Under the pieces are notes generated by a model. The model saw only the letters and a program-made list of their open reading frames with translations, was not told where the DNA came from and did no database searches. A stretch of 64,000 bases of DNA, from assembly GCA_012295275.1 (NCBI GenBank), contig CM022665.1, positions 682,001 through 746,000 of the forward strand. Reading direction: 5' to 3'. Of this stretch, positions 5,095 through 55,260 are shown in pieces (within the stretch, counting starts at the first letter, position 1; the number at the start of each line of letters is the position of its first letter). Source of the stretch: Chrysomallon squamiferum (taxonomy: Eukaryota > Animalia > Mollusca). The translations under genes were made by a program, and so were the position numbers.

Positions 5095-5211
5095 ATGACA
5101 CATTTGCTGGAAAATGTACATGAAGGATTGGTACCACCTGGAGAGGAGACATCAACAGTGCTGGGAACTTACCAGTATTTTCATTATGGCTGCGATGGTC
5201 AAGATGACAGG
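5095..5211 (+). CDS. UFSP1: UFSP1-like coding exon 1
   Basis: ATG at 5095 immediately after an in-frame TGA; encodes [39 protein letters not shown]; donor GT at 5212; likely acceptor AG at 5072-5073. Confidence 0.88.
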
Positions 5212-7682: not shown

Positions 7683-7715
<33 letters not shown>

Positions 7716-13220: not shown

Positions 13221-13305
13221 CGCAAGCATGTTTTTTCTCAGTATTCGCCACGTGCTAGTGTGTAAATTAAGCTAGCACTAGCAAATACTGAGAAGTAATC
13301 CTGCG
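13221..13305 (+). ncRNA. Candidate pre-miRNA hairpin, diverged H3-type variant (3' arm UAGCACUAGCAAAUACUGAGAAG from 13273)
   Basis: 5' arm ttctcagtatt pairs Watson-Crick with aatactgagaa; gtgctag pairs with ctagcac; UGUG at the loop entry. Confidence 0.6.
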
Positions 13306-13726
13306 CTGATTCCTCACGGTTTCGGGACATCTGATCGTGTTGTTTAATGAATTTAAAGAGAAATAAACTGATTCGCAAGATCAACAGTCAGGTTTATTTA
13401 CGACCATCATATCGTCATTACTTTCCCATTTCTTCGTGTTGGTGTGTCAAACCCTTGTAGGAGGAGGAAATGCTGGGGCAGTATGGCATGAGCCATAGGT
13501 CAAAACACGACTACAGTTTCCTTCGTAATTAGTTTCTTTTTCGAAAGAGATTGGCATTTTGAATTTTATCCAAATTTCTAATTAGTCCAATTAACAAAAC
13601 AGTAGTTGTCATTACAAATAAGTGATAACTTCCGGTTCTCAATGGGGCAATTCAAAATTCATTAACTCTCACAGTCAGCTCATTTACTATATATAAACAA
13701 TGTTGCCAATCTATCGAAAGGTAATA

Positions 13727-13809
13727 GCAGGCATATTTTTTCTCAGTATTCGCTACGTGCTAGTGTGTAAATTAAGCTAGCACTAGCAAATACTGAGAGG
13801 TAATCCTGC
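13727..13809 (+). ncRNA. Candidate pre-miRNA hairpin, diverged H3-type variant (3' arm from 13778)
   Basis: tctcagtatt-c-gcta-c-gtgctag pairs with ctagcac-tagc-a-aatactgaga; basal gcagg/cctgc stem. Confidence 0.6.
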
Positions 13810-14940
13810 GATGATTCCTCACAGTATCGGGACATCCGACAATGTGGTTTAAAGCATATCAAGCGAAATAAACTGATTCCGCCACCGCATCTACAACAGA
13901 CAGATTTACTTAGAACCATCACATCGTCAGAACTATCATAATCCTTCTTACCACTGGCGTTTCACAACATCCTAACAGTAGCAAAAACTGGGACAGTATC
14001 ATACAACTTTTACATCCTAACACGTCTTGAAATTCTTTCGTAATCAGTTTCTTTTCTCCAAAGCGGGTGATAACTCCAGTGTCGTAGGCCAACATTTGTA
14101 ATTAAGCTAAAAAAATAAACATTGCTTCAAGTTTCTACTAATAAAATGACTCTCACTATCACCTCATTCACTCATTTACCAAGTATAAATAATTTCAGCT
14201 ACTTCTAATATCGATGCAGAAGCAGGCGTCGTCTCCAGTCGTTCTAGTATTTCTTTCGTGCCAGTGACGTAAAACACAACTAGCACTAGCATCATCAGTA
14301 CTTTGCTTGTATTTGGTTCTGCTGGCGTTTCACGTTCTGCTAGCACTAGCAAATGCTGGGAGAGTATCGGATGAGCTTTACTTCACAACTCTTCTACGCG
14401 CATCTTTCGAAACGTAATCGCAGGCATATTTTTTCTCAGTATTCGCCACGTGCTTGTGTGTAAACTGAGCTAGCACTAGCAAATGCTGGGAGGTAATCCT
14501 GCGGTGATTCTTCGCGTTTTTGGGACATCCGACCATCTGGTTGAAAGCCTTTCCTTTTTAGCTAAATTATGCTCAAACCGCTACCAGATCACAGAAGACA
14601 CCACTCAAATTTATTTACGACCATCACGTCCTTAATACTTTGCTAGTATTTCTTGGTGCTGGCGTTTCACGTCTTGTTAGCACTAGCAAATGCTGGGAGA
14701 GTATAGTACGAAATGCACTTCAACAACGATACGTAAACTGCACGGCCATCATTTCGTTCGTAATCCGTTTTTTTTTTTTAAAAGCGCTTGGTAATTTGAA
14801 TTTTCGACGTCGAAATTTCTAATTAGTCCAATTAAGTAAACAATGCTTGATGTTTCAACCAAGTGATAACTAGCGGTTGTCAATGAGTCAATTCAAAATT
14901 CATTCACTCTCACTGTCAGCTCACTGCCTCATTTACGAAG

Positions 14941-14947
14941 TATAAGT
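14941..14947 (+). promoter_or_regulatory. TATA-like element (TATAAGT) in the unit spacer, repeated once per unit
   Basis: About 140 bp upstream of hairpin H1. Homologous positions in the degenerate copies read TATAAAT (14184) and TATATATAAA (13688). A CCAAT lies ~110 bp upstream. Confidence 0.4.
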
Positions 14948-15080
14948 AATTTCAGATACTTCTAATATCGTTGCAGATGCAGGCGTCGTCTCCAGTCACA
15001 TCAGCTTTCAGGTATTATTTGCTTTTCTTCACATTTAGTTTTCTTCAACAGAAACTGTACGAGACAATTTCCTGATATGT

Positions 15081-15164
15081 TATTTCTAAACGTTCTGGTA
15101 TTTGTTTCGTGCTCGTGACGTAAAACAAAACTAGCACTAGCAAATGCTGGAGGTTTATCGAATA
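15081..15164 (+). ncRNA. Hairpin H1 of the representative unit (predicted mature 3p 15132-15153)
   Basis: ttctggtatttgtttcgtgctcgt / loop / actagcactagcaaatgctggag; basal taaac/gttta; CTAC at +17. Confidence 0.7.
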
Positions 15165-15248
15165 GACAGCTACGCTTCCGAAACATCGCCGTCGCAAGTA
15201 GACGACGAAATGACGAAAACTTACGCATTACGTACATTAAGAGAAAGA

Positions 15249-15332
15249 CATCATCAGTACTTTGCTTGTATTTGGTTGTGCTGGCGTTTCACGTTCTGCT
15301 AGCACTAGCAAATGCTGGGAGAGTATCGGATG
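15249..15332 (+). ncRNA. Hairpin H2 (predicted mature 3p 15300-15321)
   Basis: tactttgcttgtatttggttgtgctggc pairs with gctagcactagcaaatgctgggagagta at 24 of 28 positions including G:U; basal catc/gatg; CTTC at +19. Confidence 0.75.
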
Positions 15333-15377
15333 AGCTTTACTTCACAACTCTTCTACGCGCATCTTTCGAAACGTAAT

Positions 15378-15462
15378 CGCAGGCATATTTTTTCTCAGTA
15401 TTCGCCACGTGCTTGTGTGTAAACTGAGCTAGCACTAGCAAATGCTGGGAGGTAATCCTGCG
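15378..15462 (+). ncRNA. Hairpin H3 (predicted mature 3p 15430-15451)
   Basis: ttctcagtatt/aatgctgggag, gtgct/agcac and basal cgcagg/cctgcg pairings; UGUG at the loop entry; CTTC at +18. Confidence 0.75.
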
Positions 15463-15593
15463 GTGATTCTTCGCGTTTTTGGGACATCCGACCATCTGGT
15501 TGAAAGCCTTTCCTTTTTAGCTAAATTATGCTCAAACCGCTACCAGATCACAGAAGACACCACTCAAATTTATTTACGACCATCACGTCCTTA

Positions 15594-15663
15594 ATACTTT
15601 GCTAGTATTTCTTGGTGCTGGCGTTTCACGTCTTGTTAGCACTAGCAAATGCTGGGAGAGTAT
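15594..15663 (+). ncRNA. Hairpin H4 (predicted mature 3p 15637-15658)
   Basis: atactttgctagtatttcttggtgctggc pairs with gttagcactagcaaatgctgggagagtat; 22-nt 5p + 14-nt loop + 22-nt 3p with 2-nt 3' overhang geometry. Confidence 0.78.
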
Positions 15664-15770
15664 AGTACGAAATGCACTTCAACAACGATACCTTTTGAGC
15701 GAAGTAATGCTGTTTCCGCAAACAGATCACAAAATCAGTCAGATTTATTTAGGACGACTACATCGTTAGC

Positions 15771-15836
15771 ACTCTGCTAGCATTTCTTTGTGCTGGTGTG
15801 TCACAAAGTACTAGCACTAGCAAATGCTGGGAGAGT
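15771..15836 (+). ncRNA. Hairpin H5 (predicted mature 3p 15812-15833)
   Basis: actctgctagcatttctttgtgctggt pairs with actagcactagcaaatgctgggagagt; UGUG at the loop entry. Confidence 0.78.
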
Positions 15837-18800
15837 ATAGTACGAAATGCACTTCAACAACGATACGTAAACTGCACGGCCATCATTTCGTTCGTAATCC
15901 GTTTTTTTTTTTTTTAAAAGCGCTTGGTAATTTGAATTTTCGACGTCGAAATTTCTAATTAGTCCAATTAAGTAAACAATGCTTGATGTTTCAACCAAGT
16001 GATAACTAGCGGTTGTCAATGAGTCAATTCAAAATTCATTCATTCACTCACTGTCAGCTCACTGCCTCATTTACGAAGTATAAGTAATTTCAGATACTTC
16101 TAATATCGTTGCAGATGCAGGCGTCGTCTCCAGTCACATCAGCTTTCAGGTATTATTTGCTTTTCTTCACATTTAGTTTTCTTCAACAGAAACTGTACGA
16201 GACAATTTCCTGATATGTTATTTCTAAACGTTCTGGTATTTGTTTCGTGCTCGTGACGTAAAACACAACTAGCACTAGCAAATGCTGGAGGTTTATCGAA
16301 TAGACAGCTACGCTTCCGAAACATCGCCGTCGCAAGTAGACGACGAAATGACGAAAACTTACGCATTACGTACATTAAGAGAAAGACATCATCAGTACTT
16401 TGCTTGTATTTGGTTGTGCTGGCGTTTCACGTTCTGCTAGCACTAGCAAATGCTGGGAGAGTATCGGATGAGCTTTACTTCACAACTCTTCTACGCGCAT
16501 CTTTCGAAACGTAATCGCAGGCATATTTTTTCTCAGTATTCGCCACGTGCTTGTGTGTAAACTGAGCTAGCACTAGCAAATGCTGGGAGGTAATCCTGCG
16601 GTGATTCTTCGCGTTTTTTGGGACATCCGACCATCTGGTTGAAAGCCTTTCCTTTTTAGCTAAATTATGCTCAAACCGCTACCAGATCACAGAAGACACC
16701 ACTCAAATTTATTTACGACCATCACGTTCTTAATACTTTGCTAGTATTTCTTGGTGCTGGCGTTTCACGTCTTGTTAGCACTAGCAAATGCTGGGAGAGT
16801 ATAGTACGAAATGCACTTCAACAACGATACGTTTTGAGCGAAGTAATGCTGTTTCCGCAAACAGATCACAAAATCAGTCAGATTTATTTAGGACGACTAC
16901 ATCGTTAGCACTCTGCTAGCATTTCTTTGTGCTGGTGTGTCACAAAGTACTAGCACTAGCAAATGCTGGGAGAGTATAGTACGAAATGCACTTCAACAAC
17001 GATACGTAAACTGCACGGCCATCATTTCGTTCGTAATCCGTTTTTTTTCTTTAAAGCGCTTGGTAATTTGAATTTTCGACGTCGAAATTTCTAATTAGTC
17101 CAATTAAGTAAACAATGCTTGATGTTTCAACCAAGTGATAACTAGCGGTTGTCAATGAGTCAATTCAAAATTCATTCACTCTCACTGTCAGCTCACTGCC
17201 TCATTTACGAAGTATAAGTAATTTCAGATACTTCTAATATCGTTGCAGATGCAGGCGTCGTCTCCAGTCACATCAGCTTTCAGGTATTATTTGCTTTTCT
17301 TCACATTTAGTTTTCTTCAACAGAAACTGTACGAGACAATTTCCTGATATGTTATTTCTAAACGTTCTGGTATTTGTTTCGTGCTCGTGACGTAAAACAC
17401 AACTAGCACTAGCAAATGCTGGAGGTTTATCGAATAGACAGCTACGCTTCCGAAACATCGCCGTCGCAAGTAGACGACGAAATGACGAAAACTTACGCAT
17501 TACGTACATTAAGAGAAAGACATCATCAGTACTTTGCTTGTATTTGGTTGTGCTGGCGTTTCACGTTCTGCTAGCACTAGCAAATGCTGGGAGAGTATCG
17601 GATGAGCTTTACTTCACAACTCTTCTACGCGCATCTTTCGAAACGTAATCGCAGGCATATTTTTTCTCAGTATTCGCCACGTGCTTGTGTGTAAACTGAG
17701 CTAGCACTAGCAAATGCTGGGAGGTAATCCTGCGGTGATTCTTCGCGTTTTTGGGACATCCGACCATCTGGTTGAAAGCCTTTCCTTTTTAGCTAAATTA
17801 TGCTCAAACCGCTACCAGATCACAGAAGACACCACTCAAATTTATTTACGACCATCACGTTCTTAATACTTTGCTAGTATTTCTTGGTGCTGGCGTTTCA
17901 CGTCTTGTTAGCACTAGCAAATGCTGGGAGAGTATAGTACGAAATGCACTTCAACAACGATACGTTTTGAGCGAAGTAATGCTGTTTCCGCAAACAGATC
18001 ACAAAATCAGTCAGATTTATTTAGGACGACTACATCGTTAGCACTCTGCTAGCATTTCTTTGTGCTGGTGTGTCACAAAGTACTAGCACTAGCAAATGCT
18101 GGGAGAGTATAGTACGAAATGCACTTCAACAACGATACGTAAACTGCACGGCCATCATTTCGTTCGTAATCCGTTTTTTTTTTTTAAAAGCGCTTGGTAA
18201 TTTGAATTTTCGACGTCGAAATTTCTAATTAGTCCAATTAAGTAAACAATGCTTGATGTTTCAACCAAGTGATAACTAGCGGTTGTCAATGAGTCAATTC
18301 AAAATTCATTCACTCTCACTGTCAGCTCACTGCCTCATTTACGAAGTATAAGTAATTTCAGATACTTCTAATATCGTTGCAGATGCAGGCGTCGTCTCCA
18401 GTCACATCAGCTTTCAGGTATTATTTGCTTTTCTTCACATTTAGTTTTCTTCAACAGAAACTGTACGAGACAATTTCCTGATATGTTATTTCTAAACGTT
18501 CTGGTATTTGTTTCGTGCTCGTGACGTAAAACACAACTAGCACTAGCAAATGCTGGAGGTTTATCGAATAGACAGCTACGCTTCCGAAACATCGCCGTCG
18601 CAAGTAGACGACGAAATGACGAAAACTTACGCATTACGTACATTAAGAGAAAGACATCATCAGTACTTTGCTTGTATTTGGTTGTGCTGGCGTTTCACGT
18701 TCTGCTAGCACTAGCAAATGCTGGGAGAGTATCGGATGAGCTTTACTTCACAACTCTTCTACGCGCATCTTTCGAAACGTAATCGCAGGCATATTTTTTC

Positions 18801-21800
18801 TCAGTATTCGCCACGTGCTTGTGTGTAAACTGAGCTAGCACTAGCAAATGCTGGGAGGTAATCCTGCGGTGATTCTTCGCGTTTTTGGGACATCCGACCA
18901 TCTGGTTGAAAGCCTTTCCTTTTTAGCTAAATTATGCTCAAACCGCTACCAGATCACAGAAGACACCACTCAAATTTATTTACGACCATCACGTCCTTAA
19001 TACTTTGCTAGTATTTCTTGGTGCTGGCGTTTCACGTCTTGTTAGCACTAGCAAATGCTGGGAGAGTATAGTACGAAATGCACTTCAACAACGATACCTT
19101 TTGAGCGAAGTAATGCTGTTTCCGCAAACAGATCACAAAATCAGTCAGATTTATTTAGGACGACTACATCGTTAGCACTCTGCTAGCATTTCTTTGTGCT
19201 GGTGTGTCACAAAGTACTAGCACTAGCAAATGCTGGGAGAGTATAGTACGAAATGCACTTCAACAACGATACGTAAACTGCACGGCCATCATTTCGTTCG
19301 TAATCCGTTTTTTTTTCTTTAAAAGCGCTTGGTAATTTGAATTTTCGACGTCGAAATTTCTAATTAGTCCAATTAAGTAAACAATGCTTGATGTTTCAAC
19401 CAAGTGATAACTAGCGGTTGTCAATGAGTCAATTCAAAATTCATTCACTCTCACTGTCAGCTCACTGCCTCATTTACGAAGTATAAGTAATTTCAGATAC
19501 TTCTAATATCGTTGCAGATGCAGGCGTCGTCTCCAGTCACATCAGCTTTCAGGTATTATTTGCTTTTCTTCACATTTAGTTTTCTTCAACAGAAACTGTA
19601 CGAGACAATTTCCTGATATGTTATTTCTAAACGTTCTGGTATTTGTTTCGTGCTCGTGACGTAAAACACAACTAGCACTAGCAAATGCTGGAGGTTTATC
19701 GAATAGACAGCTACGCTTCCGAAACATCGCCGTCGCAAGTAGACGACGAAATGACGAAAACTTACGCATTACGTACATTAAGAGAAAGACATCATCAGTA
19801 CTTTGCTTGTATTTGGTTGTGCTGGCGTTTCACGTTCTGCTAGCACTAGCAAATGCTGGGAGAGTATCGGATGAGCTTTACTTCACAACTCTTCTACGCG
19901 CATCTTTCGAAACGTAATCGCAGGCATATTTTTTTTCTCAGTATTCGCCACGTGCTTGTGTGTAAACTGAGCTAGCACTAGCAAATGCTGGGAGGTAATC
20001 CTGCGGTGATTCTTCGCGTTTTTTGGGACATCCGACCATCTGGTTGAAAGCCTTTCCTTTTTAGCTAAATTATGCTCAAACCGCTACCAGATCACAGAAG
20101 ACACCACTCAAATTTATTTACGACCATCACGTCCTTAATACTTTGCTAGTATTTCTTGGTGCTGGCGTTTCACGTCTTGTTAGCACTAGCAAATGCTGGG
20201 AGAGTATAGTACGAAATGCACTTCAACAACGATACCTTTTGAGCGAAGTAATGCTGTTTCCGCAAACAGATCACAAAAGCAGTCAGATTTATTTAGGACG
20301 ACTACATCGTTAGCACTCTGCTAGCATTTCTTTGTGCTGGTGTGTCACAAAGTACTAGCACTAGCAAATGCTGGGAGAGTATAGTACGAAATGCACTTCA
20401 ACAACGATACGTAAACTGCACGGCCATCATTTCGTTCGTAATCCGTTTTTTTTTTTTTTTTTTTTAAAAGCGCTTGGTAATTTGAATTTTCGACGTCGAA
20501 ATTTCTAATTAGTCCAATTAAGTAAACAAACATGCTTGATGTTTCAACCAAGTGATAACTAGCGGTTGTCAATGAGTCAATTCAAAATTCATTCACTCTC
20601 ACTGTCAGCTCACTGCCTCATTTACGAAGTATAAGTAATTTCAGATACTTCTAATATCGTTGCAGATGCAGGCGTCGTCTCCAGTCACATCAGCTTTCAG
20701 GTATTATTTGCTTTTCTTCACATTTAGTTTTCTTCAACAGAAACTGTACGAGACAATTTCCTGATATGTTATTTCTAAACGTTCTGGTATTTGTTTCGTG
20801 CTCGTGACGTAAAAAAAACAACTAGCACTAGCAAATGCTGGAGGTTTATCGAATAGACAGCTACGCTTCCGAAACATCGCCGTCGCAAGTAGACGACGAA
20901 ATGACGAAAACTTACGCATTACGTACATTAAGAGAAAGACATCATCAGTACTTTGCTTGTATTTGGTTGTGCTGGCGTTTCACGTTCTGCTAGCACTAGC
21001 AAATGCTGGGAGAGTATCGGATGAGCTGTACTTCACACAACTCTTCTACGCGCATCTTTCGAAACGTAATCGCAGGCATATTTTTTTTCTCAGTATTCGC
21101 CACGTGCTTGTGTGTAAACTGAGCTAGCACTAGCAAATGCTGGGAGGTAATCCTGCGGTGATTCTTCGCGTTTTTGGGACATCCGACCATCTGGTTGAAA
21201 GCCTTTCCTTTTTAGCTAAATTATGCTCAAACCGCTACCAGATCACAGAAGACACCACTCAAATTTATTTACGACCATCACGTCCTTAATACTTTGCTAG
21301 TATTTCTTGGTGCTGGCGTTTCACGTCTTGTTAGCACTAGCAAATGCTGGGAGAGTATAGTACGAAATGCACTTCAACAACGATACCTTTTGAGCGAAGT
21401 AATGCTGTTTCCGCAAACAGATCACAAAAAGCAGTCAGATTTATTTAGGACGACTACATCGTTAGCACTCTGCTAGCATTTCTTTGTGCTGGTGTGTCAC
21501 AAAGTACTAGCACTAGCAAATGCTGGGAGGAGTATATACGAAATGCACTTCAACAACGATACGTAAACTGCACGGCCATCATTTCGTTCGTAATCCGTTT
21601 TTTTTCTTCTTTAAAAGCGCTTGGTAATTTGAATTTTCGACGTCGAAATTTCTAATTAGTCCAATTAAGTAAACAATGCTTGATGTTTCAACCAAGTGAT
21701 AACTAGCGGTTGTCAATGAGTCAATTCAAAATTCATTCACTCTCACTGTCAGCTCACTGCCTCATTTACGAAGTATAAGTAATTTCAGATACTTCTAATA

Positions 21801-24800
21801 TCGTTGCAGATGCAGGCGTCGTCTCCAGTCACATCAGCTTTCAGGTATTATTTGCTTTTCTTCACATTTAGTTTTCTTCAACAGAAACTGTACGAGACAA
21901 TTTCCTGATATGTTATTTCTAAACGTTCTGGTATTTGTTTCGTGCTCGTGACGTAAAAAACACAACTAGCACTAGCAAATGCTGGAGGTTTATCGAATAG
22001 ACAGCTACGCTTCCGAAACATCGCCGTCGCAAGTAGACGACGAAATGACGAAAACTTACGCATTACGTACATTAAGAGAAAGACATCATCAGTACTTTGC
22101 TTGTATTTGGTTGTGCTGGCGTTTCACGTTCTGCTAGCACTAGCAAATGCTGGGAGAGTATCGGATGAGCTTTACTTCACAACTCTTCTACGCGCATCTT
22201 TCGAAACGTAATCGCAGGCATATTTTTTCTCAGTATTCGCCACGTGCTTGTGTGTAAACTGAGCTAGCACTAGCAAATGCTGGGAGGTAATCCTGCGGTG
22301 ATTCTTCGCGTTTTTGGGACATCCGACCATCTGGTTGAAAGCCTTTCCTTTTTAGCTAAATTATGCTCAAACCGCTACCAGATCACAGAAGACACCACTC
22401 AAATTTATTTACGACCATCACGTCCTTAATACTTTGCTAGTATTTCTTGGTGCTGGCGTTTCACGTCTTGTTAGCACTAGCAAATGCTGGGAGAGTATAG
22501 TACGAAATGCACTTCAACAACGATACGTTTTTGAGCGAAGTAATGCTGTTTCCGCAAACAGATCACAAAAGCAGTCAGATTTATTTAGGACGACTACATC
22601 GTTAGCACTCTGCTAGCATTTCTTTGTGCTGGTGTGTCACAAAGTACTAGCACTAGCAAATGCTGGGAGAGTATAGTACGAAATGCACTTCAACAACGAT
22701 ACGTAAACTGCACGGCCATCATTTCGTTCGTAATCCGTTTTTTTTCTTCTTTAAAAGCGCTTGGTAATTTGAATTTTCGACGTCGAAATTTCTAATTAGT
22801 CCAATTAAGTAAACAATGCTTGATGTTTCAACCAAGTGATAACTAGCGGTTGTCAATGAGTCAATTCAAAATTCATTCACTCTCACTGTCAGCTCACTGC
22901 CTCATTTACGAAGTATAAGTAATTTCAGATACTTCTAATATCGTTGCAGATGCAGGCGTCGTCTCCAGTCACATCAGCTTTCAGGTATTATTTGCTTTTC
23001 TTCACATTTAGTTTTCTTCAACAGAAACTGTACGAGACAATTTCCTGATATGTTATTTCTAAACGTTCTGGTATTTGTTTCGTGCTCGTGACGTAAAACA
23101 CAACTAGCACTAGCAAATGCTGGAGGTTTATCGAATAGACAGCTACGCTTCCGAAACATCGCCGTCGCAAGTAGACGACGAAATGACGAAAACTTACGCA
23201 TTACGTACATTAAAGAAAAGACATCATCAGTACTTTGCTTGTATTTGGTTGTGCTGGCGTTTCACGTTCTGCTAGCACTAGCAAATGCTGGGAGAGTATC
23301 GGATGAGCTTTACTTCACAACTCTTCTACGCGCATCTTTCGAAACGTAATCGCAGGCATATTTTTTTTCTCAGTATTCGCCACGTGCTTGTGTGTAAACT
23401 GAGCTAGCACTAGCAAATGCTGGGAGGTAATCCTGCGGTGATTCTTCGCGTTTTGGGACATCCGACCATCTGGTTGAAAGCCTTTCCTTTTTAGCTAAAT
23501 TATGCTCAAACCGCTACCAGATCACAGAAGACACCACTCAAATTTATTTACGACCATCACGTCCTTAATACTTTGCTAGTATTTCTTGGTGCTGGCGTTT
23601 CACGTCTTGTTAGCACTAGCAAATGCTGGGAGAGTATAGTACGAAATGCACTTCAACAACGATACCTTTTGAGCGAAGTAATGCTGTTTCCGCAAACAGA
23701 TCACAAAAAAGCAGTCAGATTTATTTAGGACGACTACATCGTTAGCACTCTGCTAGCATTTCTTTGTGCTGGTGTGTCACAAAGTACTAGCACTAGCAAA
23801 TGCTGGGAGAGTATAGTACGAAATGCACTTCAACAACGATACGTAAACTGCACGGCCATCATTTCGTTCGTAATCCGTTTTTTTTTTTTCTTTAAAAGCG
23901 CTTGGTAATTTGAATTTTCGACGTCGAAATTTCTAATTAGTCCAATTAAGTAAACAATGCTTGATGTTTCAACCAAGTGATAACTAGCGGTTGTCAATGA
24001 GTCAATTCAAAATTCATTCACTCTCACTGTCAGCTCACTGCCTCATTTACGAAGTATAAGTAATTTCAGATACTTCTAATATCGTTGCAGATGCAGGCGT
24101 CGTCTCCAGTCACATCAGCTTTCAGGTATTATTTGCTTTTCTTCACATTTAGTTTTCTTCAACAGAAACTGTACGAGACAATTTCCTGATATGTTATTTC
24201 TAAACGTTCTGGTATTTGTTTCGTGCTCGTGACGTAAAAACACAACTAGCACTAGCAAATGCTGGAGGTTTATCGAATAGACAGCTACGCTTCCGAAACA
24301 TCGCCGTCGCAAGTAGACGACGAAATGACGAAAACTTACGCATTACGTACATTAAGAGAAAGACATCATCAGTACTTTGCTTGTATTTGGTTGTGCTGGC
24401 GTTTCACGTTCTGCTAGCACTAGCAAATGCTGGGAGAGTATCGGATGAGCTTTACTTCACAACTCTTCTACGCGCATCTTTCGAAACGTAATCGCAGGCA
24501 TATTTTTTTCTCAGTATTCGCCACGTGCTTGTGTGTAAACTGAGCTAGCACTAGCAAATGCTGGGAGGTAATCCTGCGGTGATTCTTCGCGTTTTTTGGG
24601 ACATCCGACCATCTGGTTGAAAGCCTTTCCTTTTTAGCTAAATTATGCTCAAACCGCTACCAGATCACAGAAGACACCACTCAAATTTATTTACGACCAT
24701 CACGTCCTTAATACTTTGCTAGTATTTCTTGGTGCTGGCGTTTCACGTCTTGTTAGCACTAGCAAATGCTGGGAGAGTATAGTACGAAATGCACTTCAAC

Positions 24801-27800
24801 AACGATACCTTTTGAGCGAAGTAATGCTGTTTCCGCAAACAGATCACAAAAAGCAGTCAGATTTATTTAGGACGACTACATCGTTAGCACTCTGCTAGCA
24901 TTTCTTTGTGCTGGTGTGTCACAAAGTACTAGCACTAGCAAATGCTGGGAGAGTATAGTACGAAATGCACTTCAACAACGATACGTAAACTGCACGGCCA
25001 TCATTTCGTTCGTAATCCGTTTTTTTTTTTTTTTTAAAGCGCTTGGTAATTTGAATTTTCGACGTCGAAATTTCTAATTAGTCCAATTAAGTAAACAATG
25101 CTTGATGTTTCAACCAAGTGATAACTAGCGGTTGTCAATGAGTCAATTCAAAATTCATTCACTCTCACTGTCAGCTCACTGCCTCATTTACGAAGTATAA
25201 GTAATTTCAGATACTTCTAATATCGTTGCAGATGCAGGCGTCGTCTCCAGTCACATCAGCTTTCAGGTATTATTTGCTTTTCTTCACATTTAGTTTTCTT
25301 CAACAGAAACTGTACGAGACAATTTCCTGATATGTTATTTCTAAACGTTCTGGTATTTGTTTCGTGCTCGTGACGTAAAACACAACTAGCACTAGCAAAT
25401 GCTGGAGGTTTATCGAATAGACAGCTACGCTTCCGAAACATCGCCGTCGCAAGTAGACGACGAAATGACGAAAACTTACGCATTACGTACATTAAGAGAA
25501 AGACATCATCAGTACTTTGCTTGTATTTGGTTGTGCTGGCGTTTCACGTTCTGCTAGCACTAGCAAATGCTGGGAGAGTATCGGATGAGCTTTACTTCAC
25601 AACTCTTCTACGCGCATCTTTCGAAACGTAATCGCAGGCATATTTTTTCTCAGTATTCGCCACGTGCTTGTGTGTAAACTGAGCTAGCACTAGCAAATGC
25701 TGGGAGGTAATCCTGCGGTGATTCTTCGCGTTTTTGGGACATCCGACCATCTGGTTGAAAGCCTTTCCTTTTTAGCTAAATTATGCTCAAACCGCTACCA
25801 GATCACAGAAGACACCACTCAAATTTATTTACGACCATCACGTCCTTAATACTTTGCTAGTATTTCTTGGTGCTGGCGTTTCACGTCTTGTTAGCACTAG
25901 CAAATGCTGGGAGAGTATAGTACGAAATGCACTTCAACAACGATACCTTTTGAGCGAAGTAATGCTGTTTCCGCAAACAGATCACAAAAGCAGTCAGATT
26001 TATTTAGGACGACTACATCGTTAGCACTCTGCTAGCATTTCTTTGTGCTGGTGTGTCACAAAGTACTAGCACTAGCAAATGCTGGGAGAGTATAGTACGA
26101 AATGCACTTCAACAACGATACGTAAACTGCACGGCCATCATTTCGTTCGTAATCCGTTTTTTTTTTTTTTAAAAGCGCTTGGTAATTTGAATTTTCGACG
26201 TCGAAATTTCTAATTAGTCAATTAAGTAAACAATGCTTGATGTTTCAACCAAGTGATAACTAGCGGTTGTCAATGAGTCAATTCAAAATTCATTCACTCT
26301 CACTGTCAGCTCACTGCCTCATTTACGAAGTATAAGTAATTTCAGATACTTCTAATATCGTTGCAGATGCAGGCGTCGTCTCCAGTCACATCAGCTTTCA
26401 GGTATTATTTGCTTTTCTTCACATTTAGTTTTCTTCAACAGAAACTGTACGAGACAATTTCCTGATATGTTATTTCTAAACGTTCTGGTATTTGTTTCGT
26501 GCTCGTGACGTAAAACACAACTAGCACTAGCAAATGCTGGAGGTTTATCGAATAGACAGCTACGCTTCCGAAACATCGCCGTCGCAAGTAGACGACGAAA
26601 TGACGAAAACTTACGCATTACGTACATTAAGAGAAAGACATCATCAGTAATTTGCTTGTATTTGGTTGTGCTGGCGTTTCACGTTCTGCTAGCACTAGCA
26701 AATGCTGGGAGAGTATCGGATGAGCTTTACTTCACAACTCTTCTACGCGCATCTTTCGAAACGTAATCGCAGGCATATTTTTTCTCAGTATTCGCCACGT
26801 GCTTGTGTGTAAACTGAGCTAGCACTAGCAAATGCTGGGAGGTAATCCTGCGGTGATTCTTCGCGTTTTTTGGGACATCCGACCATCTGGTTGAAAGCCT
26901 TTCCTTTTTAGCTAAATTATGCTCAAACCGCTACCAGATCACAGAAGACACCACTCAAATTTATTTACGACCATCACGTCCTTAATACTTTGCTAGTATT
27001 TCTTGGTGCTGGCGTTTCACGTCTTGTTAGCACTAGCAAATGCTGGGAGAGTATAGTACGAAATGCACTTCAACAACGATACCTTTTGAGCGAAGTAATG
27101 CTGTTTCCGCAAACAGATCACAAAAGCAGTCAGATTTATTTAGGACGACTACATCGTTAGCACTCTGCTAGCATTTCTTTGTGCTGGTGTGTCACAAAGT
27201 ACTAGCACTAGCAAATGCTGGGAGAGTATAGTACGAAATGCACTTCAACAACGATACGTAAACTGCACGGCCATCATTTCGTTCGTAATCCGTTTTTTTT
27301 TTTTTTTTAAAAGCGCTTGGTAATTTGAATTTTCGACGTCGAAATTTCTAATTAGTCCAATTAAGTAAACAATGCTTGATGTTTCAACCAAGTGATAACT
27401 AGCGGTTGTCAATGAGTCAATTCAAAATTCATTCACTCTCACTGTCAGCTCACTGCCTCATTTACGAAGTATAAGTAATTTCAGATACTTCTAATATCGT
27501 TGCAGATGCAGGCGTCGTCTCCAGTCACATCAGCTTTCAGGTATTATTTGCTTTTCTTCACATTTAGTTTTCTTCAACAGAAACTGTACGAGACAATTTC
27601 CTGATATGTTATTTCTAAACGTTCTGGTATTTGTTTCGTGCTCGTGACGTAAAACACAACTAGCACTAGCAAATGCTGGAGGTTTATCGAATAGACAGCT
27701 ACGCTTCCGAAACATCGCCGTCGCAAGTAGACGACGAAATGACGAAAACTTACGCATTACGTACATTAAGAGAAAGACATCATCAGTACTTTGCTTGTAT

Positions 27801-30800
27801 TTGGTTGTGCTGGCGTTTCACGTTCTGCTAGCACTAGCAAATGCTGGGAGAGTATCGGATGAGCTTTACTTCACAACTCTTCTACGCGCATCTTTCGAAA
27901 CGTAATCGCAGGCATATTTTTTTTCTCAGTATTCGCCACGTGCTTGTGTGTAAACTGAGCTAGCACTAGCAAATGCTGGGAGGTAATCCTGCGGTGATTC
28001 TTCGCGTTTTTTGGGACATCCGACCATCTGGTTGAAAGCCTTTCCTTTTTAGCTAAATTATGCTCAAACCGCTACCAGATCACAGAAGACACCACTCAAA
28101 TTTATTTACGACCATCACGTCCTTAATACTTTGCTAGTATTTCTTGGTGCTGGCGTTTCACGTCTTGTTAGCACTAGCAAATGCTGGGAGAGTATAGTAC
28201 GAAATGCACTTCAACAACGATACCTTTTGAGCGAAGTAATGCTGTTTCCGCAAACAGATCACAAAAGCAGTCAGATTTATTTAGGACGACTACATCGTTA
28301 GCACTCTGCTAGCATTTCTTTGTGCTGGTGTGTCACAAAGTACTAGCACTAGCAAATGCTGGGAGAGTATAGTACGAAATGCACTTCAACAACGATACGT
28401 AAACTGCACGGCCATCATTTCGTTCGTAATCCGTTTTTTTTTTTTTTTTTTAAAAGCGCTTGGTAATTTGAATTTTCGACGTCGAAATTTCTAATTAGTC
28501 CAATTAAGTAAACAATGCTTGATGTTTCAACCAAGTGATAACTAGCGGTTGTCAATGAGTCAATTCAAAATTCATTCACTCTCACTGTCAGCTCACTGCC
28601 TCATTTACGAAGTATAAGTAATTTCAGATACTTCTAATATCGTTGCAGATGCAGGCGTCGTCTCCAGTCACATCAGCTTTCAGGTATTATTTGCTTTTCT
28701 TCACATTTAGTTTTCTTCAACAGAAACTGTACGAGACAATTTCCTGATATGTTATTTCTAAACGTTCTGGTATTTGTTTCGTGCTCGTGACGTAAAACAC
28801 AACTAGCACTAGCAAATGCTGGAGGTTTATCGAATAGACAGCTACGCTTCCGAAACATCGCCGTCGCAAGTAGACGACGAAATGACGAAAACTTACGCAT
28901 TACGTACATTAAAGAAAGACATCATCAGTACTTTGCTTGTATTTGGTTGTGCTGGCGTTTCACGTTCTGCTAGCACTAGCAAATGCTGGGAGAAATATCG
29001 GATGAGCTTTACTTCACAACTCTTCTACGCGCATCTTTCGAAACGTAATCGCAGGCATATTTTTTCTCAGTATTCGCCACGTGCTTGTGTGTAAACTGAG
29101 CTAGCACTAGCAAATGCTGGGAGGTAATCCTGCGGTGATTCTTCGCGTTTTGGGACATCCGACCATCTGGTTGAAAGCCTTTCCTTTTTAGCTAAATTAT
29201 GCTCAAACCGCTACCAGATCACAGAAGACACCACTCAAATTTATTTACGACCATCACGTCCTTAATACTTTGCTAGTATTTCTTGGTGCTGGCGTTTCAC
29301 GTCTTGTTAGCACTAGCAAATGCTGGGAGAGTATAGTACGAAATGCACTTCAACAACGATACCTTTTGAGCGAAGTAATGCTGTTTCCGCAAACAGATCA
29401 CAAAAGCAGTCAGATTTATTTAGGACGACTACATCGTTAGCACTCTGCTAGCATTTCTTTGTGCTGGTGTGTCACAAAGTACTAGCACTAGCAAATGCTG
29501 GGAGAGTATAGTACGAAATGCACTTCAACAACGATACGTAAACTGCACGGCCATCATTTCGTTCGTAATCCGTTTTTTTTTTTTTTTTCTTTAAAAGCGC
29601 TTGGTAATTTGAATTTTCGACGTCGAAATTTCTAATTAGTCCAATTAAGTAAACAATGCTTGATGTTTCAACCAAGTGATAACTAGCGGTTGTCAATGAG
29701 TCAATTCAAAATTCATTCACTCTCACTGTCAGCTCACTGCCTCATTTACGAAGTATAAGTAATTTCAGATACTTCTAATATCGTTGCAGATGCAGGCGTC
29801 GTCTCCAGTCACATCAGCTTTCAGGTATTATTTGCTTTTCTTCACATTTAGTTTTCTTCAACAGAAACTGTACGAGACAATTTCCTGATATGTTATTTCT
29901 AAACGTTCTGGTATTTGTTTCGTGCTCGTGACGTAAAACACAACTAGCACTAGCAAATGCTGGAGGTTTATCGAATAGACAGCTACGCTTCCGAAACATC
30001 GCCGTCGCAAGTAGACGACGAAATGACGAAAACTTTACGCATTACGTACATTAAAGAAAGACATCATCAGTACTTTGCTTGTATTTGGTTGTGCTGGCGT
30101 TTCACGTTCTGCTAGCACTAGCAAATGCTGGGAGAAATATCGGATGAGCTTTACTTCACAACTCTTCTACGCGCATCTTTCGAAACGTAATCGCAGGCAT
30201 ATTTTTTTCAGTATTCGCCACGTGCTTGTGTGTAAACTGAGCTAGCACTAGCAAATGCTGGGAGGTAATCCTGCGGTGATTCTTCGCGTTTTTTTTGGGA
30301 CATCCGACCATCTGGTTGAAAGCCTTTCCTTTTTAGCTAAATTATGCTCAAACCGCTACCAGATCACAGAAGACACCACTCAAATTTATTTACGACCATC
30401 ACGTCCTTAATACTTTGCTAGTATTTCTTGGTGCTGGCGTTTCACGTCTTGTTAGCACTAGCAAATGCTGGGAGAGTATAGTACGAAATGCACTTCAACA
30501 ACGATACCTTTTGAGCGAAGTAATGCTGTTTCCGCAAACAGATCACAAAAGCAGTCAGATTTATTTAGGACGACTACATCGTTAGCACTCTGCTAGCATT
30601 TCTTTGTGCTGGTGTGTCACAAAGTACTAGCACTAGCAAATGCTGGGAGAGTATAGTACGAAATGCACTTCAACAACGATACGTAAACTGCACGGCCATC
30701 ATTTCGTTCGTAATCCGTTTTTTTTTTTTTCTTTAAAAGCGCTTGGTAATTTGAATTTTCGACGTCGAAATTTCTAATTAGTCCAATTAAGTAAACAATG

Positions 30801-33800
30801 CTTGATGTTTCAACCAAGTGATAACTAGCGGTTGTCAATGAGTCAATTCAAAATTCATTCACTCTCACTGTCAGCTCACTGCCTCATTTACGAAGTATAA
30901 GTAATTTCAGATACTTCTAATATCGTTGCAGATGCAGGCGTCGTCTCCAGTCACATCAGCTTTCAGGTATTATTTGCTTTTCTTCACATTTAGTTTTCTT
31001 CAACAGAAACTGTACGAGACAATTTCCTGATATGTTATTTCTAAACGTTCTGGTATTTGTTTCGTGCTCGTGACGTAAAACAAAACTAGCACTAGCAAAA
31101 GCTGGAGGTTTATCGAATAGACAGCTACGCTTCCGAAACATCGCCGTCGCAAGTAGACGACGAAATGACGAAAAGTTACGCATTACGTACATTAAGAGAA
31201 AGACATCATCAATTACTTTGCTTGTATTTGGTTGTGCTGGCGTTTCACGTTCTGCTAGCACTAGCAAATGCTGGGAGAAATATCGGATGAGCTTTACTTC
31301 ACAACTCTTCTACGCGCATCTTTCGAAACGTAATCGCAGGCATATTTTTTCTCAGTATTCGCCACGTGCTTGTGTGTAAACTGAGCTAGCACTAGCAAAT
31401 GCTGGGAGGTAATCCTGCGGTGATTCTTCGCGTTTTTGGGACATCCGACCATCTGGTTGAAAGCCTTTCCTTTTTAGCTAAATTATGCTCAAACCGCTAC
31501 CAGATCACAGAAGACACCACTCAAATTTATTTACGACCATCACGTCCTTAATACTTTGCTAGTATTTCTTGGTGCTGGCGTTTCACGTCTTGTTAGCACT
31601 AGCAAATGCTGGGAGAGTATAGTACGAAATGCACTTCAACAACGATACCTTTTGAGCGAAGTAATGCTGTTTCCGCAAACAGATCACAAAAGCAGTCAGA
31701 TTTATTTAGGACGACTACATCGTTAGCACTCTGCTAGCATTTCTTTGTGCTGGTGTGTCACAAAGTACTAGCACTAGCAAATGCTGGGAGAGTATAGTAC
31801 GAAATGCACTTCAACAACGATACGTAAACTGCACGGCCATCATTTCGTTCGTAATCCGTTTTTTTTTTCTTTAAAAGCGCTTGGTAATTTGAATTTTCGA
31901 CGTCGAAATTTCTAATTAGTCCAATTAAGTAAACAATGCTTGATGTTTCAACCAAGTGATAACTAGCGGTTGTCAATGAGTCAATTCAAAATTCATTCAC
32001 TCTCACTGTCAGCTCACTGCCTCATTTACGAAGTATAAGTAATTTCAGATACTTCTAATATCGTTGCAGATGCAGGCGTCGTCTCCAGTCACATCAGCTT
32101 TCAGGTATTATTTGCTTTTCTTCACATTTAGTTTTCTTCAACAGAAACTGTACGAGACAATTTCCTGATATGTTATTTCTAAACGTTCTGGTATTTGTTT
32201 CGTGCTCGTGACGTAAAACACAACTAGCACTAGCAAATGCTGGAGGTTTATCGAATAGACAGCTACGCTTCCGAAACATCGCCGTCGCAAGTAGACGACG
32301 AAATGACGAAAACTTACGCATTACGTACATTAAGAAAAGACATCATCAGTACTTTGCTTGTATTTGGTTGTGCTGGCGTTTCACGTTCTGCTAGCACTAG
32401 CAAATGCTGGGAGAGTATCGGATGAGCTTTACTTCACAACTCTTCTACGCGCATCTTTCGAAACGTAATCGCAGGCATATTTTTTCTCAGTATTCGCCAC
32501 GTGCTTGTGTGTAAACTGAGCTAGCACTAGCAAATGCTGGGAGGTAATCCTGCGGTGATTCTTCGCGTTTTTGGGACATCCGACCATCTGGTTGAAAGCC
32601 TTTCCTTTTTAGCTAAATTATGCTCAAACCGCTACCAGATCACAGAAGACACCACTCAAATTTATTTACGACCATCACGTCCTTAATACTTTGCTAGTAT
32701 TTCTTGGTGCTGGCGTTTCACGTCTTGTTAGCACTAGCAAATGCTGGGAGAGTATAGTACGAAATGCACTTCAACAACGATACCTTTTGAGCGAAGTAAT
32801 GCTGTTTCCGCAAACAGATCACAAAAAAGCAGTCAGATTTATTTAGGACGACTACATCGTTAGCACTCTGCTAGCATTTCTTTGTGCTGGTGTGTCACAA
32901 AGTACTAGCACTAGCAAATGCTGGGAGAGTATAGTACGAAATGCACTTCAACAACGATACGTAAACTGCACGGCCATCATTTCGTTCGTAATCCGTTTTT
33001 TTTTTTTTTCTTTAAAAGCGCTTGGTAATTTGAATTTTCGACGTCGAAATTTCTAATTAGTCAATTAAGTAAACAATGCTTGATGTTTCAACCAAGTGAT
33101 AACTAGCGGTTGTCAATGAGTCAATTCAAAATTCATTCACTCTCACTGTCAGCTCACTGCCTCATTTACGAAGTATAAGTAATTTCAGATACTTCTAATA
33201 TCGTTGCAGATGCAGGCGTCGTCTCCAGTCACATCAGCTTTCAGGTATTATTTGCTTTTCTTCACATTTAGTTTTCTTCAACAGAAACTGTACGAGACAA
33301 TTTCCTGATATGTTATTTCTAAACGTTCTGGTATTTGTTTCGTGCTCGTGACGTAAAAAACACAACTAGCACTAGCAAATGCTGGAGGTTTATCGAATAG
33401 ACAGCTACGCTTCCGAAACATCGCCGTCGCAAGTAGACGACGAAATGACGAAAACTTACGCATTACGTACATTAAGAGAAAACACATCATCAATTACTTT
33501 GCTTGTATTTGGTTGTGCTGGCGTTTCACGTTCTGCTAGCACTAGCAAATGCTGGGAGAAATATCGGATGAGCTTTACTTCACAACTCTTCTACGCGCAT
33601 CTTTCGAAACGTAATCGCAGGCATATTTTTTCTCAGTATTCGCCACGTGCTTGTGTGTAAACTGAGCTAGCACTAGCAAATGCTGGGAGGTAATCCTGCG
33701 GTGATTCTTCGCGTTTTTTGGGACATCCGACCATCTGGTTGAAAGCCTTTCCTTTTTAGCTAAATTATGCTCAAACCGCTACCAGATCACAGAAGACACC

Positions 33801-35863
33801 ACTCAAATTTATTTACGACCATCACGTCCTTAATACTTTGCTAGTATTTCTTGGTGCTGGCGTTTCACGTCTTGTTAGCACTAGCAAATGCTGGGAGAGT
33901 ATAGTACGAAATGCACTTCAACAACGATACCTTTTGAGCGAAGTAATGCTGTTTCCGCAAACAGATCACAAAAGCAGTCAGATTTATTTAGGACGACTAC
34001 ATCGTTAGCACTCTGCTAGCATTTCTTTGTGCTGGTGTGTCACAAAGTACTAGCACTAGCAAATGCTGGGAGAGTATAGTACGAAATGCACTTCAACAAC
34101 GATACGTAAACTGCACGGCCATCATTTCGTTCGTAATCCGTTTTTTTTTTTCTTTAAAAGCGCTTGGTAATTTGAATTTTCGACGTCGAAATTTCTAATT
34201 AGTCCAATTAAGTAAACAATGCTTGATGTTTCAACCAAGTGATAACTAGCGGTTGTCAATGAGTCAATTCAAAATTCATTCACTCTCACTGTCAGCTCAC
34301 TGCCTCATTTACGAAGTATAAGTAATTTCAGATACTTCTAATATCGTTGCAGATGCAGGCGTCGTCTCCAGTCACATCAGCTTTCAGGTATTATTTGCTT
34401 TTCTTCACATTTAGTTTTCTTCAACAGAAACTGTACGAGACAATTTCCTGATATGTTATTTCTAAACGTTCTGGTATTTGTTTCGTGCTCGTGACGTAAA
34501 ACACAACTAGCACTAGCAAATGCTGGAGGTTTATCGAATAGACAGCTACGCTTCCGAAACATCGCCGTCGCAAGTAGACGACGAAATGACGAAAACTTAC
34601 GCATTACGTACATTAAGAGAAAGACATCATCAGTACTTTGCTTGTATTTGGTTGTGCTGGCGTTTCACGTTCTGCTAGCACTAGCAAATGCTGGGAGAGT
34701 ATCGGATGAGCTTTACTTCACAACTCTTCTACGCGCATCTTTCGAAACGTAATCGCAGGCATATTTTTTCTCAGTATTCGCCACGTGCTTGTGTGTAAAC
34801 TGAGCTAGCACTAGCAAATGCTGGGAGGTAATCCTGCGGTGATTCTTCGCGTTTTTGGGACATCCGACCATCTGGTTGAAAGCCTTTCCTTTTTAGCTAA
34901 ATTATGCTCAAACCGCTACCAGATCACAGAAGACACCACTCAAATTTATTTACGACCATCACGTCCTTAATACTTTGCTAGTATTTCTTGGTGCTGGCGT
35001 TTCACGTCTTGTTAGCACTAGCAAATGCTGGGAGAGTATAGTACGAAATGCACTTCAACAACGATACCTTTTGAGCGAAGTAATGCTGTTTCCGCAAACA
35101 GATCACAAAAGCAGTCAGATTTATTTAGGACGACTACATCGTTAGCACTCTGCTAGCATTTCTTTGTGCTGGTGTGTCACAAAGTACTAGCACTAGCAAA
35201 TGCTGGGAGAGTATAGTACGAAATGCACTTCAACAACGATACGTAAACTGCACGGCCATCATTTCGTTCGTAATCCGTTTTTTTTTCTTTAAAAGCGCTT
35301 GGTAATTTGAATTTTCGACGTCGAAATTTCTAATTAGTCCAATTAAGTAAACAATGCTTGATGTTTCAACCAAGTGATAACTAGCGGTTGTCAATGAGTC
35401 AATTCAAAATTCATTCACTCTCACTGTCAGCTCACTGCCTCATTTACGAAGTATAAGTAATTTCAGATACTTCTAATATCGTTGCAGATGCAGGCGTCGT
35501 CTCCAGTCACATCAGCTTTCAGGTATTATTTGCTTTTCTTCACATTTAGTTTTCTTCAACAGAAACTGTACGAGACAATTTCCTGATATGTTATTTCTAA
35601 ACGTTCTGGTATTTGTTTCGTGCTCGTGACGTAAAACACAACTAGCACTAGCAAATGCTGGAGGTTTATCGAATAGACAGCTACGCTTCCGAAACATCGC
35701 CGTCGCAAGTAGACGACGAAATGACGAAAACTTACGCATTACGTACATTAAGAGAAAGACATCATCAGTACTTTGCTTGTATTTGGTTGTGCTGGCGTTT
35801 CACGTTCTGCTAGCACTAGCAAATGCTGGGAGAGTATCGGATGAGCTTTACTTCACAACTCTT

Positions 35864-36063
35864 NNNNNNNNNNNNNNNNNNNNNNNNNNNNNNNNNNNNN
35901 NNNNNNNNNNNNNNNNNNNNNNNNNNNNNNNNNNNNNNNNNNNNNNNNNNNNNNNNNNNNNNNNNNNNNNNNNNNNNNNNNNNNNNNNNNNNNNNNNNNN
36001 NNNNNNNNNNNNNNNNNNNNNNNNNNNNNNNNNNNNNNNNNNNNNNNNNNNNNNNNNNNNNNN
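35864..36063. other. Assembly gap (200 N)
   Basis: Run of exactly 200 Ns, probably a placeholder size; it interrupts an array unit just after H2. Confidence 0.99.
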
Positions 36064-36722: not shown

Positions 36723-37081
36723 AAATACCTTGATTTACTCAAATAAGAAACACCCTGATTTATTAAACCATATAAACACCCTGATTTACTAAAAACATAA
36801 AACACCCTAATTTCTTAGAAACTGACTGATATACTAAAAACAAGAAACACCCCTTTGTACTAAAAACAGGAAACACCCTGATGTACTCAAAACAACAAAC
36901 ACCATGATATATTAAAACCAGGAACACCCTGATCTACTAAAAACAAGAAACATTGTGATTTACTAAAAGCAGAAACATCCTGATAAACTAAAAACTAGAA
37001 ACACCCTGATGTACTAAAAACAGGAAACACCATGATGTGCTAAAAAGTAGAAACTCTGATATACTAAAACTAGAAACACCC
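36723..37081. repeat. ~26-bp minisatellite, ~14 degenerate copies (AAACACCCTGATGTACTAAAAACAGG)
   Basis: Periodic aaacaccctgat...actaaaaac motifs. Confidence 0.9.
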
Positions 37082-39865: not shown

Positions 39866-40423
39866 ATATTAGGTTACAATCATATCAACAACTTGTATAA
39901 AAACATGAAAACAAAAAAATCAAAACCTGAAAAGAAACTTGCTGATTAAAAGCTGCAAGAGTTGTTTTTTTTTAAATCAGTCACCACAAACAGAAAGTCA
40001 ACAAAACTTTTAATTAAAAAAATCTATTTAAAAATAAAATAGCAAAGGACATGACAGTGTTTAGAAAACAAAAAAAGAAAGGATAAATTCAGTATGTAGT
40101 TGTGTATGCTGCACAACAACGATGCTTACAGCAGTTGTAAAGATGTGAGTTGAGAAGACCTGGTAGAAGGTTGGAAAACTTGTTATCATAGAGAACTCTA
40201 AAAATAAACACAGGTAGGTCAGTAAATACATGTTAGATAAGTAATAAATAATTAAAGATATTAAGTGATAAACTAAATAATAAATAATTAAAGGCATGAA
40301 AAGATAATGTAAATAACAGAATAGATATTTAGATAACTAAGTGCATTTTACATTAATAATAATAATTAAAAGCTTTAATAAAATAAGTATTTCAGGGCCA
40401 ATCATTTTATTTAATACATTTTT

Positions 40424-40710
40424 AGAATTCTGTAGACAAACATTTTAATATCTGTATTTTATTTATATTATTTGAAAATTCTGTAAACAAATATTTTAAT
40501 ATCTGGATTTTATTTATTAAACTTTCAGAATTTTGCATACATTTTAATATCTATATTTTATTATTAAACTTTGAGAATTCTGCAAAAATACATTTCATTA
40601 TCTGTATTTTATTTATTAAACTTTCAGAATTTTGCAAACATTTTTATATGTGTATTTTATTATTAAACTTTGAGAAGTCTGGAAACAAACATTTTAGTAT
40701 CTGTATTTAA
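40424..40710. repeat. ~48-bp minisatellite, ~6 copies (in a Slit pseudogene intron)
   Basis: agaattctg...acattttaatatctgtattttatttattaaacttt periodicity. Confidence 0.8.
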
Positions 40711-48210: not shown

Positions 48211-48229
48211 ATACATCCTGTCTGTCTGT

Positions 48230-53872: not shown

Positions 53873-53911
<39 letters not shown>

Positions 53912-55224: not shown

Positions 55225-55260
<36 letters not shown>

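Follow-up and report, generated by a model that had tools for sequence, protein, structure and literature searches.

A tandem array of hairpins with one constant arm in Chrysomallon squamiferum: a candidate microRNA cluster resembling miR-430 in design

Introduction

What might a genome gain from repeating one short sequence dozens of times, on one strand, always as the 3' arm of a hairpin? The question is raised by 64,000 nucleotides of the mollusc Chrysomallon squamiferum (GCA_012295275.1, contig CM022665.1, 682,001 to 746,000, forward strand). This whole stretch is referred to here as the window and all positions are window positions. A sequence-only reading of the window had proposed that a 1.14-kb tandem repeat conceals a microRNA (miRNA) cluster, amplified independently in an invertebrate and comparable to zebrafish miR-430.

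Here we describe the array, its hairpins and a diverged counterpart found in a metagenome contig. The array is very probably a miRNA gene cluster, likely of a new family. The best combined explanation, which we put forward with moderate confidence, is a cluster that would supply one miRNA at very high dose in the early gastropod embryo.

Results

Layout and copy number

A 19-nt stretch of the arm has 95 matches in the window, from 14341 to 35829, of which 94 are exact and one (31087) carries a single mismatch. All are on the plus strand, and no match arose in 100 shuffles. The matches lie in head-to-tail units with a period of 1134-1148 bp, and a spacer anchor marks 19 unit starts. Each full unit holds five hairpins, H1 to H5. 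The locus is laid out as follows.

12630..14290, plus strand: more ancient, diverged copies of the unit (66-78% identity across the longer blocks) that carry decayed hairpins, plus two more spacers with a TATA motif (TATAA at 13692 and 14184)
14290..35863, plus strand: homogeneous tandem array of 18 full units between an incomplete first unit (H2, H3, H4) and an incomplete last one (H1, H2)
35864..36063, unstranded: assembly gap, a run of 200 N that terminates the array

The 18 full units differ pairwise by a mean of 4.5 substitutions, and the remaining differences are mostly homopolymer lengths. Because the array runs into the gap, the copy number is a minimum. The sequence-only reading had placed the five arms of the first full unit correctly (15132, 15300, 15430, 15637 and 15812). 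Its count (18x5 + 3 + 2 = 95) holds by the 19-mer search, and the gap that it saw cutting the array is the N run. The start it gave, 14291, must be moved upstream, as the locus reaches approximately 12630 in the form of decayed copies and two intact variant hairpins. Three further copies of the 19-mer, with two mismatches each, lie 5' of the array at 12747, 13273 and 13778. The figure of about 95 hairpins is right as a count of arm copies. The 95 are five hairpin types of three subfamilies repeated across near-identical units, not 95 independent hairpins.

H5 has the 3' flank of H4, and the two have approximately 55 nt in common, evidence of local conversion or duplication. The partial first unit lacks H5, at the same stretch that H4 and H5 share. 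A contig from one of the RNA runs described below runs from H5 into the H4 flank, 175 bp earlier; unit variants that have one more hairpin would explain this join, as would an artefact of assembly.

Hairpin folding

Folding was carried out in 64-nt windows with 200 shuffles and z-scores on both strands. Hairpin coordinates in the first full unit were measured on the next unit and the offsets carried over. Types A, B and C were assigned by matching to the diverged counterpart, contig L001 (next section), with the arm excluded.

15094..15153, plus strand: H1, predicted precursor, type A; z -3.7; counterparts at L001 496/894/1287
15264..15321, plus strand: H2, predicted precursor, type B; z -4.8; counterparts at L001 625/1017/1410
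15394..15451, plus strand: H3, predicted precursor, type C, the weakest fold; z -2.3; closest to L001 756/1149/1542
15601..15658, plus strand: H4, predicted precursor, type B duplicate; z -5.4
15776..15833, plus strand: H5, predicted precursor, type B duplicate; z -4.8
13237..13294, plus strand: variant type C hairpin outside the homogeneous array; z -6.5; seed unchanged, 3' half altered, pairing kept
13742..13799, plus strand: second variant type C hairpin; z -7.8

Four of the five types in the array therefore fold strongly on the plus strand when compared with shuffled sequence (z -3.7 to -5.4), and H3 is weaker. The minus-strand values for H1 to H5 are -0.8, -0.8, -2.8, -0.9 and -2.6. The plus-strand specificity that had been proposed is borne out for H1, H2 and H4 and less sharply for H5, and fails for H3. 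The claim of a constant arm facing a divergent partner also needs trimming: loops and flanks do diverge, and the partner arm is constrained, its GxATT and TGCT ends being fixed.

Canonical miRNA hairpins are imperfect, with arms of approximately 22 nt and 16 or more base pairs. In all 17 array hairpins (window and L001) 16-19 of 20 arm bases are paired upstream, and each stem contains 3-8 G:U pairs. Given a 22-nt arm, precursor length comes to 58-60 nt and loop length to 13-15 nt, the loop size that had been estimated from the sequence. Metazoan norms are a 60-nt precursor and a 16-nt loop, with a loop minimum of 8 nt (in the part of PMC11701709 used here). In hairpin form, precursor size, arm, loop and pairing the array resembles canonical miRNA genes.

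A diverged counterpart

An exact-match scan of metagenome contigs returned a single contig of this kind, L001 (1767 bp). The two ends of L001 share a 155-bp overlap (98.7% identity), which suggests a collapsed tandem unit of approximately 1614 bp. L001 carries 10 hairpins with the window's arm, and all 10 fold better on the plus than on the minus strand (z -1.9 to -6.2). Its animal of origin may be another species, or L001 may represent a long-diverged locus.

Window and L001 were compared over 11 of 17 aligned rows. Within the arm, nucleotides 1-8 are 100% identical, 9-17 are 98% identical and 18-22 are 67% identical. Elsewhere the identity is 70% in the 5' arm, 49% in the loop, 38% in the 5' flank and 34% in the 3' flank. 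A mature arm, and above all its seed, that is conserved over star, loop and flanks is the pattern by which miRNAs are recognised, and these identities have that pattern.

Type A comprises H1 and L001 496/894/1287; type B comprises H2, H4 and H5 and L001 625/1017/1410; type C, a weaker match, comprises H3 and L001 756/1149/1542. The order in L001 is spacer, one extra hairpin and three A-B-C triplets, and in the window it is spacer, A-B-C, B, B. In the 17-row alignment 95.4% of cells are paired, compared with 29-57% when the partners are slid. Nine cells show two-sided changes, more than in 498 of 500 shuffles, among rows that are kin.

As a control, folding was applied to 43 chance matches from contigs of viruses and prokaryotes, preselected for the TGCT partner motif. 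Eight of the 43 had at least 14 of 20 arm bases paired and one had a z below -3. The viral (39 loci) and prokaryotic (3 loci) pattern matches were rejected as chance, having low folding scores and, at 38 of the 39 viral loci, a single match. One viral contig (L029, 706-1502) has three copies of a 14-mer within an Ala/Gly-rich-looking, apparently protein-coding repeat that is unrelated to the hairpins.

The constant arm and its ends

15131..15153, plus strand: constant 3' arm of H1, predicted mature miRNA, with its 5' end at 15132 (seed AGCACUA) or 15131 (seed UAGCACU)

The arm starts (C/U)UAGCACUAG. The mature RNA may begin at the U chosen in the sequence-only reading or one base upstream, which would alter the seed. 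AGCACU lies within the seed in either register.

Drosha is positioned by a CNNC motif in a window 16-18 nt beyond the precursor. CNNC starts 17-19 nt beyond a 22-nt arm in 5/5 window types and 8/10 L001 hairpins (background 0.16 and 0.07). This placement is supportive evidence, not independent evidence, because the hairpin copies are related.

The spacer

Each unit opens with a spacer in which short motifs recur in fixed order.

14820..14975, plus strand: putative promoter-like spacer of the first full unit, recurring in each unit, with the same motif order in L001
14820, plus strand: TAATTAGTCCAAT, kept in L001; a CCAAT-like motif is among the spacer motifs
14861, plus strand: AAGTGAT, kept in L001
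14884, plus strand: TGAGT(C/A)AATTCA, kept in L001
14941, plus strand: TATAA, kept in L001 and in two older spacers of the window
14963, plus strand: TAATATC(G/A)TTG, approximately 25-35 nt past TATAA, kept in L001
15009..15016, plus strand: splice-donor-like CAGGTA(T/A)T, the boundary falling after CAG, kept in L001

Aligned to L001, the spacer has 127 of 186 columns identical (68%), with a score of 131 against a maximum of 69 in 300 shuffles. These motifs suggest an RNA polymerase II (Pol II) promoter that leads into a short first exon, and there is probably one promoter per unit. Each unit is likely to consist of a promoter and a hairpin cassette, with triplets in L001. Transcription by Pol III was ruled out by a run of 6-8 T before H3 within the unit.

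A segment of approximately 90 nt at 15000-15090, which contains the donor-like site, is present in the homogeneous unit and missing from the older copy at 14230; its ends are weakly complementary. A second variant of the spacer (14844-14967), seen in run X1, has 7 differences over 124 nt and shows that the same organism carries other units of greater divergence.

The unit in public sequencing runs

The unit was found in seven public runs, four of them recorded as RNA and belonging to one and the same study. Contigs from three RNA runs cover 25, 21 and 20 of 30 unit bins with few differences; strand and level are not readable from contigs. Fractions of 0.25, 0.80 and 0.70 of the unit's words are present in runs X4, X5 and X6. 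Run X7 (organism B) was set aside as evidence of conservation: it offers 295 nt with one difference at depth 4, together with short chance pieces, and is most likely cross-contamination.

Discussion

The case for a microRNA cluster and the points against it

The reading of the hairpins as miRNA paralogues gains strong support from their folding, from the conservation of arm over loop in L001, from the placement of CNNC and from the size of the precursors. The processing, the 5' end and the stage of action are steps that we infer.

A number of observations pull in the opposite direction. The mature RNA is a prediction from DNA sequence and computed folds. H3 folds no better on the plus than on the minus strand. 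The basal UG was not found at its usual place. Two Drosha-positioning motifs indicate different 3' ends: the CmR motif, with a purine at +5 in 16/17 hairpins and C at -5 in 6/17, indicates an end at arm nucleotide 21, and CNNC at 16-18 in 15/17 indicates nucleotide 23. Three pairs have two-sided changes, all at the stem base, and this number is not above shuffles (279/500) among 17 related rows. In the Platynereis supplements (samples of 24-144 h) there were five incidental matches and none was a mature 5' end among the four matches listed.

The RNA contigs add to these difficulties. All come from a single study and are labelled metatranscriptomic. They span the supposed promoter (X1 14703-14967, X2 from 14871, X3 from 14785) and pass the donor-like site unspliced, and they give no support for a start site in each unit. 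Read-through, or DNA carried over from a multicopy repeat, may account for them. Should they instead be genuine RNA from adults, they would speak against a role confined to the embryo.

Alternative explanations

The alternative that survives best accepts an amplified miRNA cluster and assigns the high dose to the germline, to stem cells or to an adult tissue instead of to maternal mRNA clearance. We regard this as possible and rather less than probable. The structural evidence for a cluster is blind to stage, and the RNA runs with the unit, all metatranscriptomic, would more often come from adult tissue. The clustered young miRNAs of the Drosophila testis are a second precedent (cited in the part of PMC8915122 covered here). 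Against it, the closest architecture (zebrafish miR-430) and the closest sequence (the annelid Capitella teleta) both belong to early-embryo loci in the portions of the reports that we draw on. The arm motif also had no matches in an abalone gonad miRNA supplement, a file that may be incomplete, from an animal in which the family is perhaps absent.

Far less probable is that the array is a source of other RNAs, namely small interfering RNA (siRNA), Piwi-interacting RNA (piRNA) or a repeated protein-binding hairpin RNA, or that the conserved 17-mer is a repeated DNA-binding site. In favour of this are the RNA contigs that span the whole unit, spacer included, and the fact that cutting by Drosha and Dicer is here a prediction. 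Conservation is limited to approximately 17-22 nt of one arm and is strongest at the 5' end, whereas loci that give rise to siRNA or piRNA do not as a rule keep one particular 22-mer constant. The partner arm keeps its G:U-assisted pairing on one strand only, and for a DNA-binding site a pairing partner would be needless. Rfam gave no match to small nuclear RNA, spliced leader RNA or other families in the window.

Equally improbable, and largely refuted by L001, is a non-functional satellite derived from an old foldback element and held constant by gene conversion: the homogenised units (4.5 substitutions per 1.14 kb) and the stretch common to H4 and H5 would suit it, but conversion within an array cannot preserve a 17-mer in L001 where loops and flanks are only 34-49% identical, and foldback elements pair on both strands whereas these stems have G:U pairs.

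How the cluster may act

With the miRNA cluster as the preferred reading, the following sequence of events can be proposed. Pol II would transcribe each unit from its TATA-like element. Drosha and Dicer would cleave the 58-60-nt hairpins and Argonaute would be loaded with the constant 3' arm. The loaded arm would repress mRNAs with AGUGCU(A) sites. When the zygotic genome is activated, many promoters and hairpins could together supply a large amount of one miRNA in the space of a few cleavage cycles, so clearing maternal mRNA. The dose-at-activation step would follow the examples of zebrafish miR-430, the Tribolium clusters and the Capitella embryo cluster. By this analogy a role in the early embryo is moderately probable overall, and somewhat more so if miRNA identity is granted.

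A bolder version, which we consider speculative and unlikely as a whole, is that annelids and snails have in common an old embryonic miRNA family, marked by an AGCAC core and missing from annotation. The promoter-dense gastropod array would then be convergent on miR-430, would clear maternal mRNA and, in the spiral-cleaving embryo, would nucleate the earliest transcription body. On this version the family would have been missed because mollusc embryos have barely been sampled for small RNA. Embryonic small RNAs were previously unsampled in other annelids or molluscs, according to the part of PMC8915122 covered here.

The locus bears on how maternal mRNA is cleared in spiralian embryos. It supplies a candidate miRNA, a predicted target site (AGUGCU, optionally followed by A) and one place in the genome at which imaging and knock-down could be aimed. 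Arrays of this kind collapse or break in assemblies and are masked as satellite. The family may therefore be common in genomes and yet have escaped notice.

Other features of the window

5095-9112, plus strand: UFSP1, an intact gene of five exons encoding 214 amino acids (Peptidase_C78, E 7e-25)

The nearest row to UFSP1 is from Gigantopelta aegis (67%), and it falls in a clade with Aplysia (Shimodaira-Hasegawa-like approximate likelihood-ratio test 94). The tree was a quick version of 43 rows, from which hits over 300 amino acids were left out except one. This grouping with gastropod sequences marks the window as most probably gastropod DNA. UFSP1 offers a synteny marker for locating the array in other gastropods.

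Downstream of the gap, two minisatellites occupy 36723-37081 and 40404-40708, with periods of 26/51/77 bp and 51/99 bp. Short Gly-X-Y collagen-like exon fragments at 42547-42640 and 43610-43680 (plus strand) apparently belong to one spliced gene, which may start near 41770. Decayed fragments of a MULE/Mutator-like transposase lie at 47200-48300 (plus strand; Pfam MULE E 0.00056, below the cut-off). Dense old dispersed repeats fill 48270-62050 in blocks of 400-750 bp at 65-85% identity.

Comparison with known systems

Rfam gave no hits at the gathering score in the 64-kb window. At relaxed thresholds the only match was a 24-nt mir-1490 fragment (E 1.9) on the minus strand of one unit, which is at chance level. 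The supplement of a mollusc small-RNA survey had no match to the arm motif, and the MirGeneDB 3.0 supplement had none in rows that give family names only. No account of the arm or of a mollusc miR-430-type array was found in the literature; that coverage was partial, with MirGeneDB and miRBase outside the search, and an earlier annotation is possible.

Membership of MIR-29 was considered because the Capitella Mir-29-P2 has a 3p mature RNA that likewise starts UAGCAC. It was rejected, as the seed here is AGCACUA rather than AGCACCA and the Rfam mir-29 model gave no match even at E 10.

In Tribolium the multicopy clusters mir-3851 and mir-3836 are expressed briefly at zygotic activation and have been linked to maternal mRNA clearance (from the part of PMC4691753 used here, where seed convergence is also thought to be common). 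Like the array, they are invertebrate, lineage-specific, multicopy 3p miRNAs. They differ in their seeds, which among those given include AGUACG, AGUACA and CACUGG, and in being scattered and heterogeneous rather than one homogenised array.

The closest sequence is found in the scaffold_488 cluster of Capitella teleta, which is abundant from post-zygotic to larval stages and absent from the gravid female body, and which its authors liken to miR-430 (PMC8915122, covered in part). At least 19 loci of the cluster lie within 6.6 kb, all on the same strand (supplement, rows 1-61 of 94). By eye, AGCAC occupies nucleotides 3-7 of the 3' arm in 14 of the 19 loci in those rows, and AGCACUA occurs in four. 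The AGCACUA subtype has UACUGG later in the arm, and its stars begin with CUGGUA and terminate in UGCUUGUG; both star ends partly recur in the stars of window H1/H3 and of L001. With these Capitella matures the arm shares AGCACUA and a U(A/G)CUGG block, approximately 13 of 22 positions with one gap, in an unscored comparison made by eye and post hoc. The Capitella register agrees with the start of the arm one base upstream.

Both systems are lophotrochozoan sets of tandem, one-strand paralogous hairpins with a 3'-arm mature RNA, predicted in the case of the array, and an AGCAC core near its 5' end. The Capitella cluster has diverse 3' halves and approximately 19 loci in the rows covered, whereas here 95 or more hairpins carry one arm. 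The base before AGCAC is A there and U here, so the 7-mer seeds differ, and a promoter-per-unit array is not described in the part of that report drawn on. The resemblance, noticed after the fact, should be taken as a lead. Together with the related array in L001, this embryo cluster with a shared core motif qualifies the suggestion that the locus was independently amplified.

The closest architecture is that of zebrafish miR-430, and the comparison proved closer than had been suggested, given the conserved promoter-like spacer in each unit and the triplets of L001. The array is not a member of the MIR-430/427/302 group: its seed is not AAGUGCU, the miR-430 seed (PMC10417697, as far as covered here), and the covariance model gave no match. 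The AGCACU of the arm (e.g. 15132-15138) is the reverse complement of six bases of that seed, probably by coincidence. In zebrafish each unit has a TATA-bearing promoter region and 2-3 precursor triplets, with more than 300 units, one every 1.8 kb (10.1101/2021.08.09.455629, used in part). To the extent of that account, the two loci have in common tandem units of approximately 1-2 kb, a TATA-bearing region (in the gastropod array a putative promoter) ahead of paralogous hairpins that fall into three subtypes, triplets within the unit (in L001) and an array broken in assembly. They differ in that the gastropod array has the seed AGCACUA or UAGCACU and no Rfam match, that its promoters and expression are predicted, and that it is read as at least 19 units from the sequence. 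If each unit does have its own promoter, the design of many TATA promoters with hairpin triplets arose twice, and this twofold origin would connect it with the demand for RNA in a rapid burst when cell cycles are short, not with vertebrate ancestry. In its proposed design the array would work like miR-430, though it stands outside that family.

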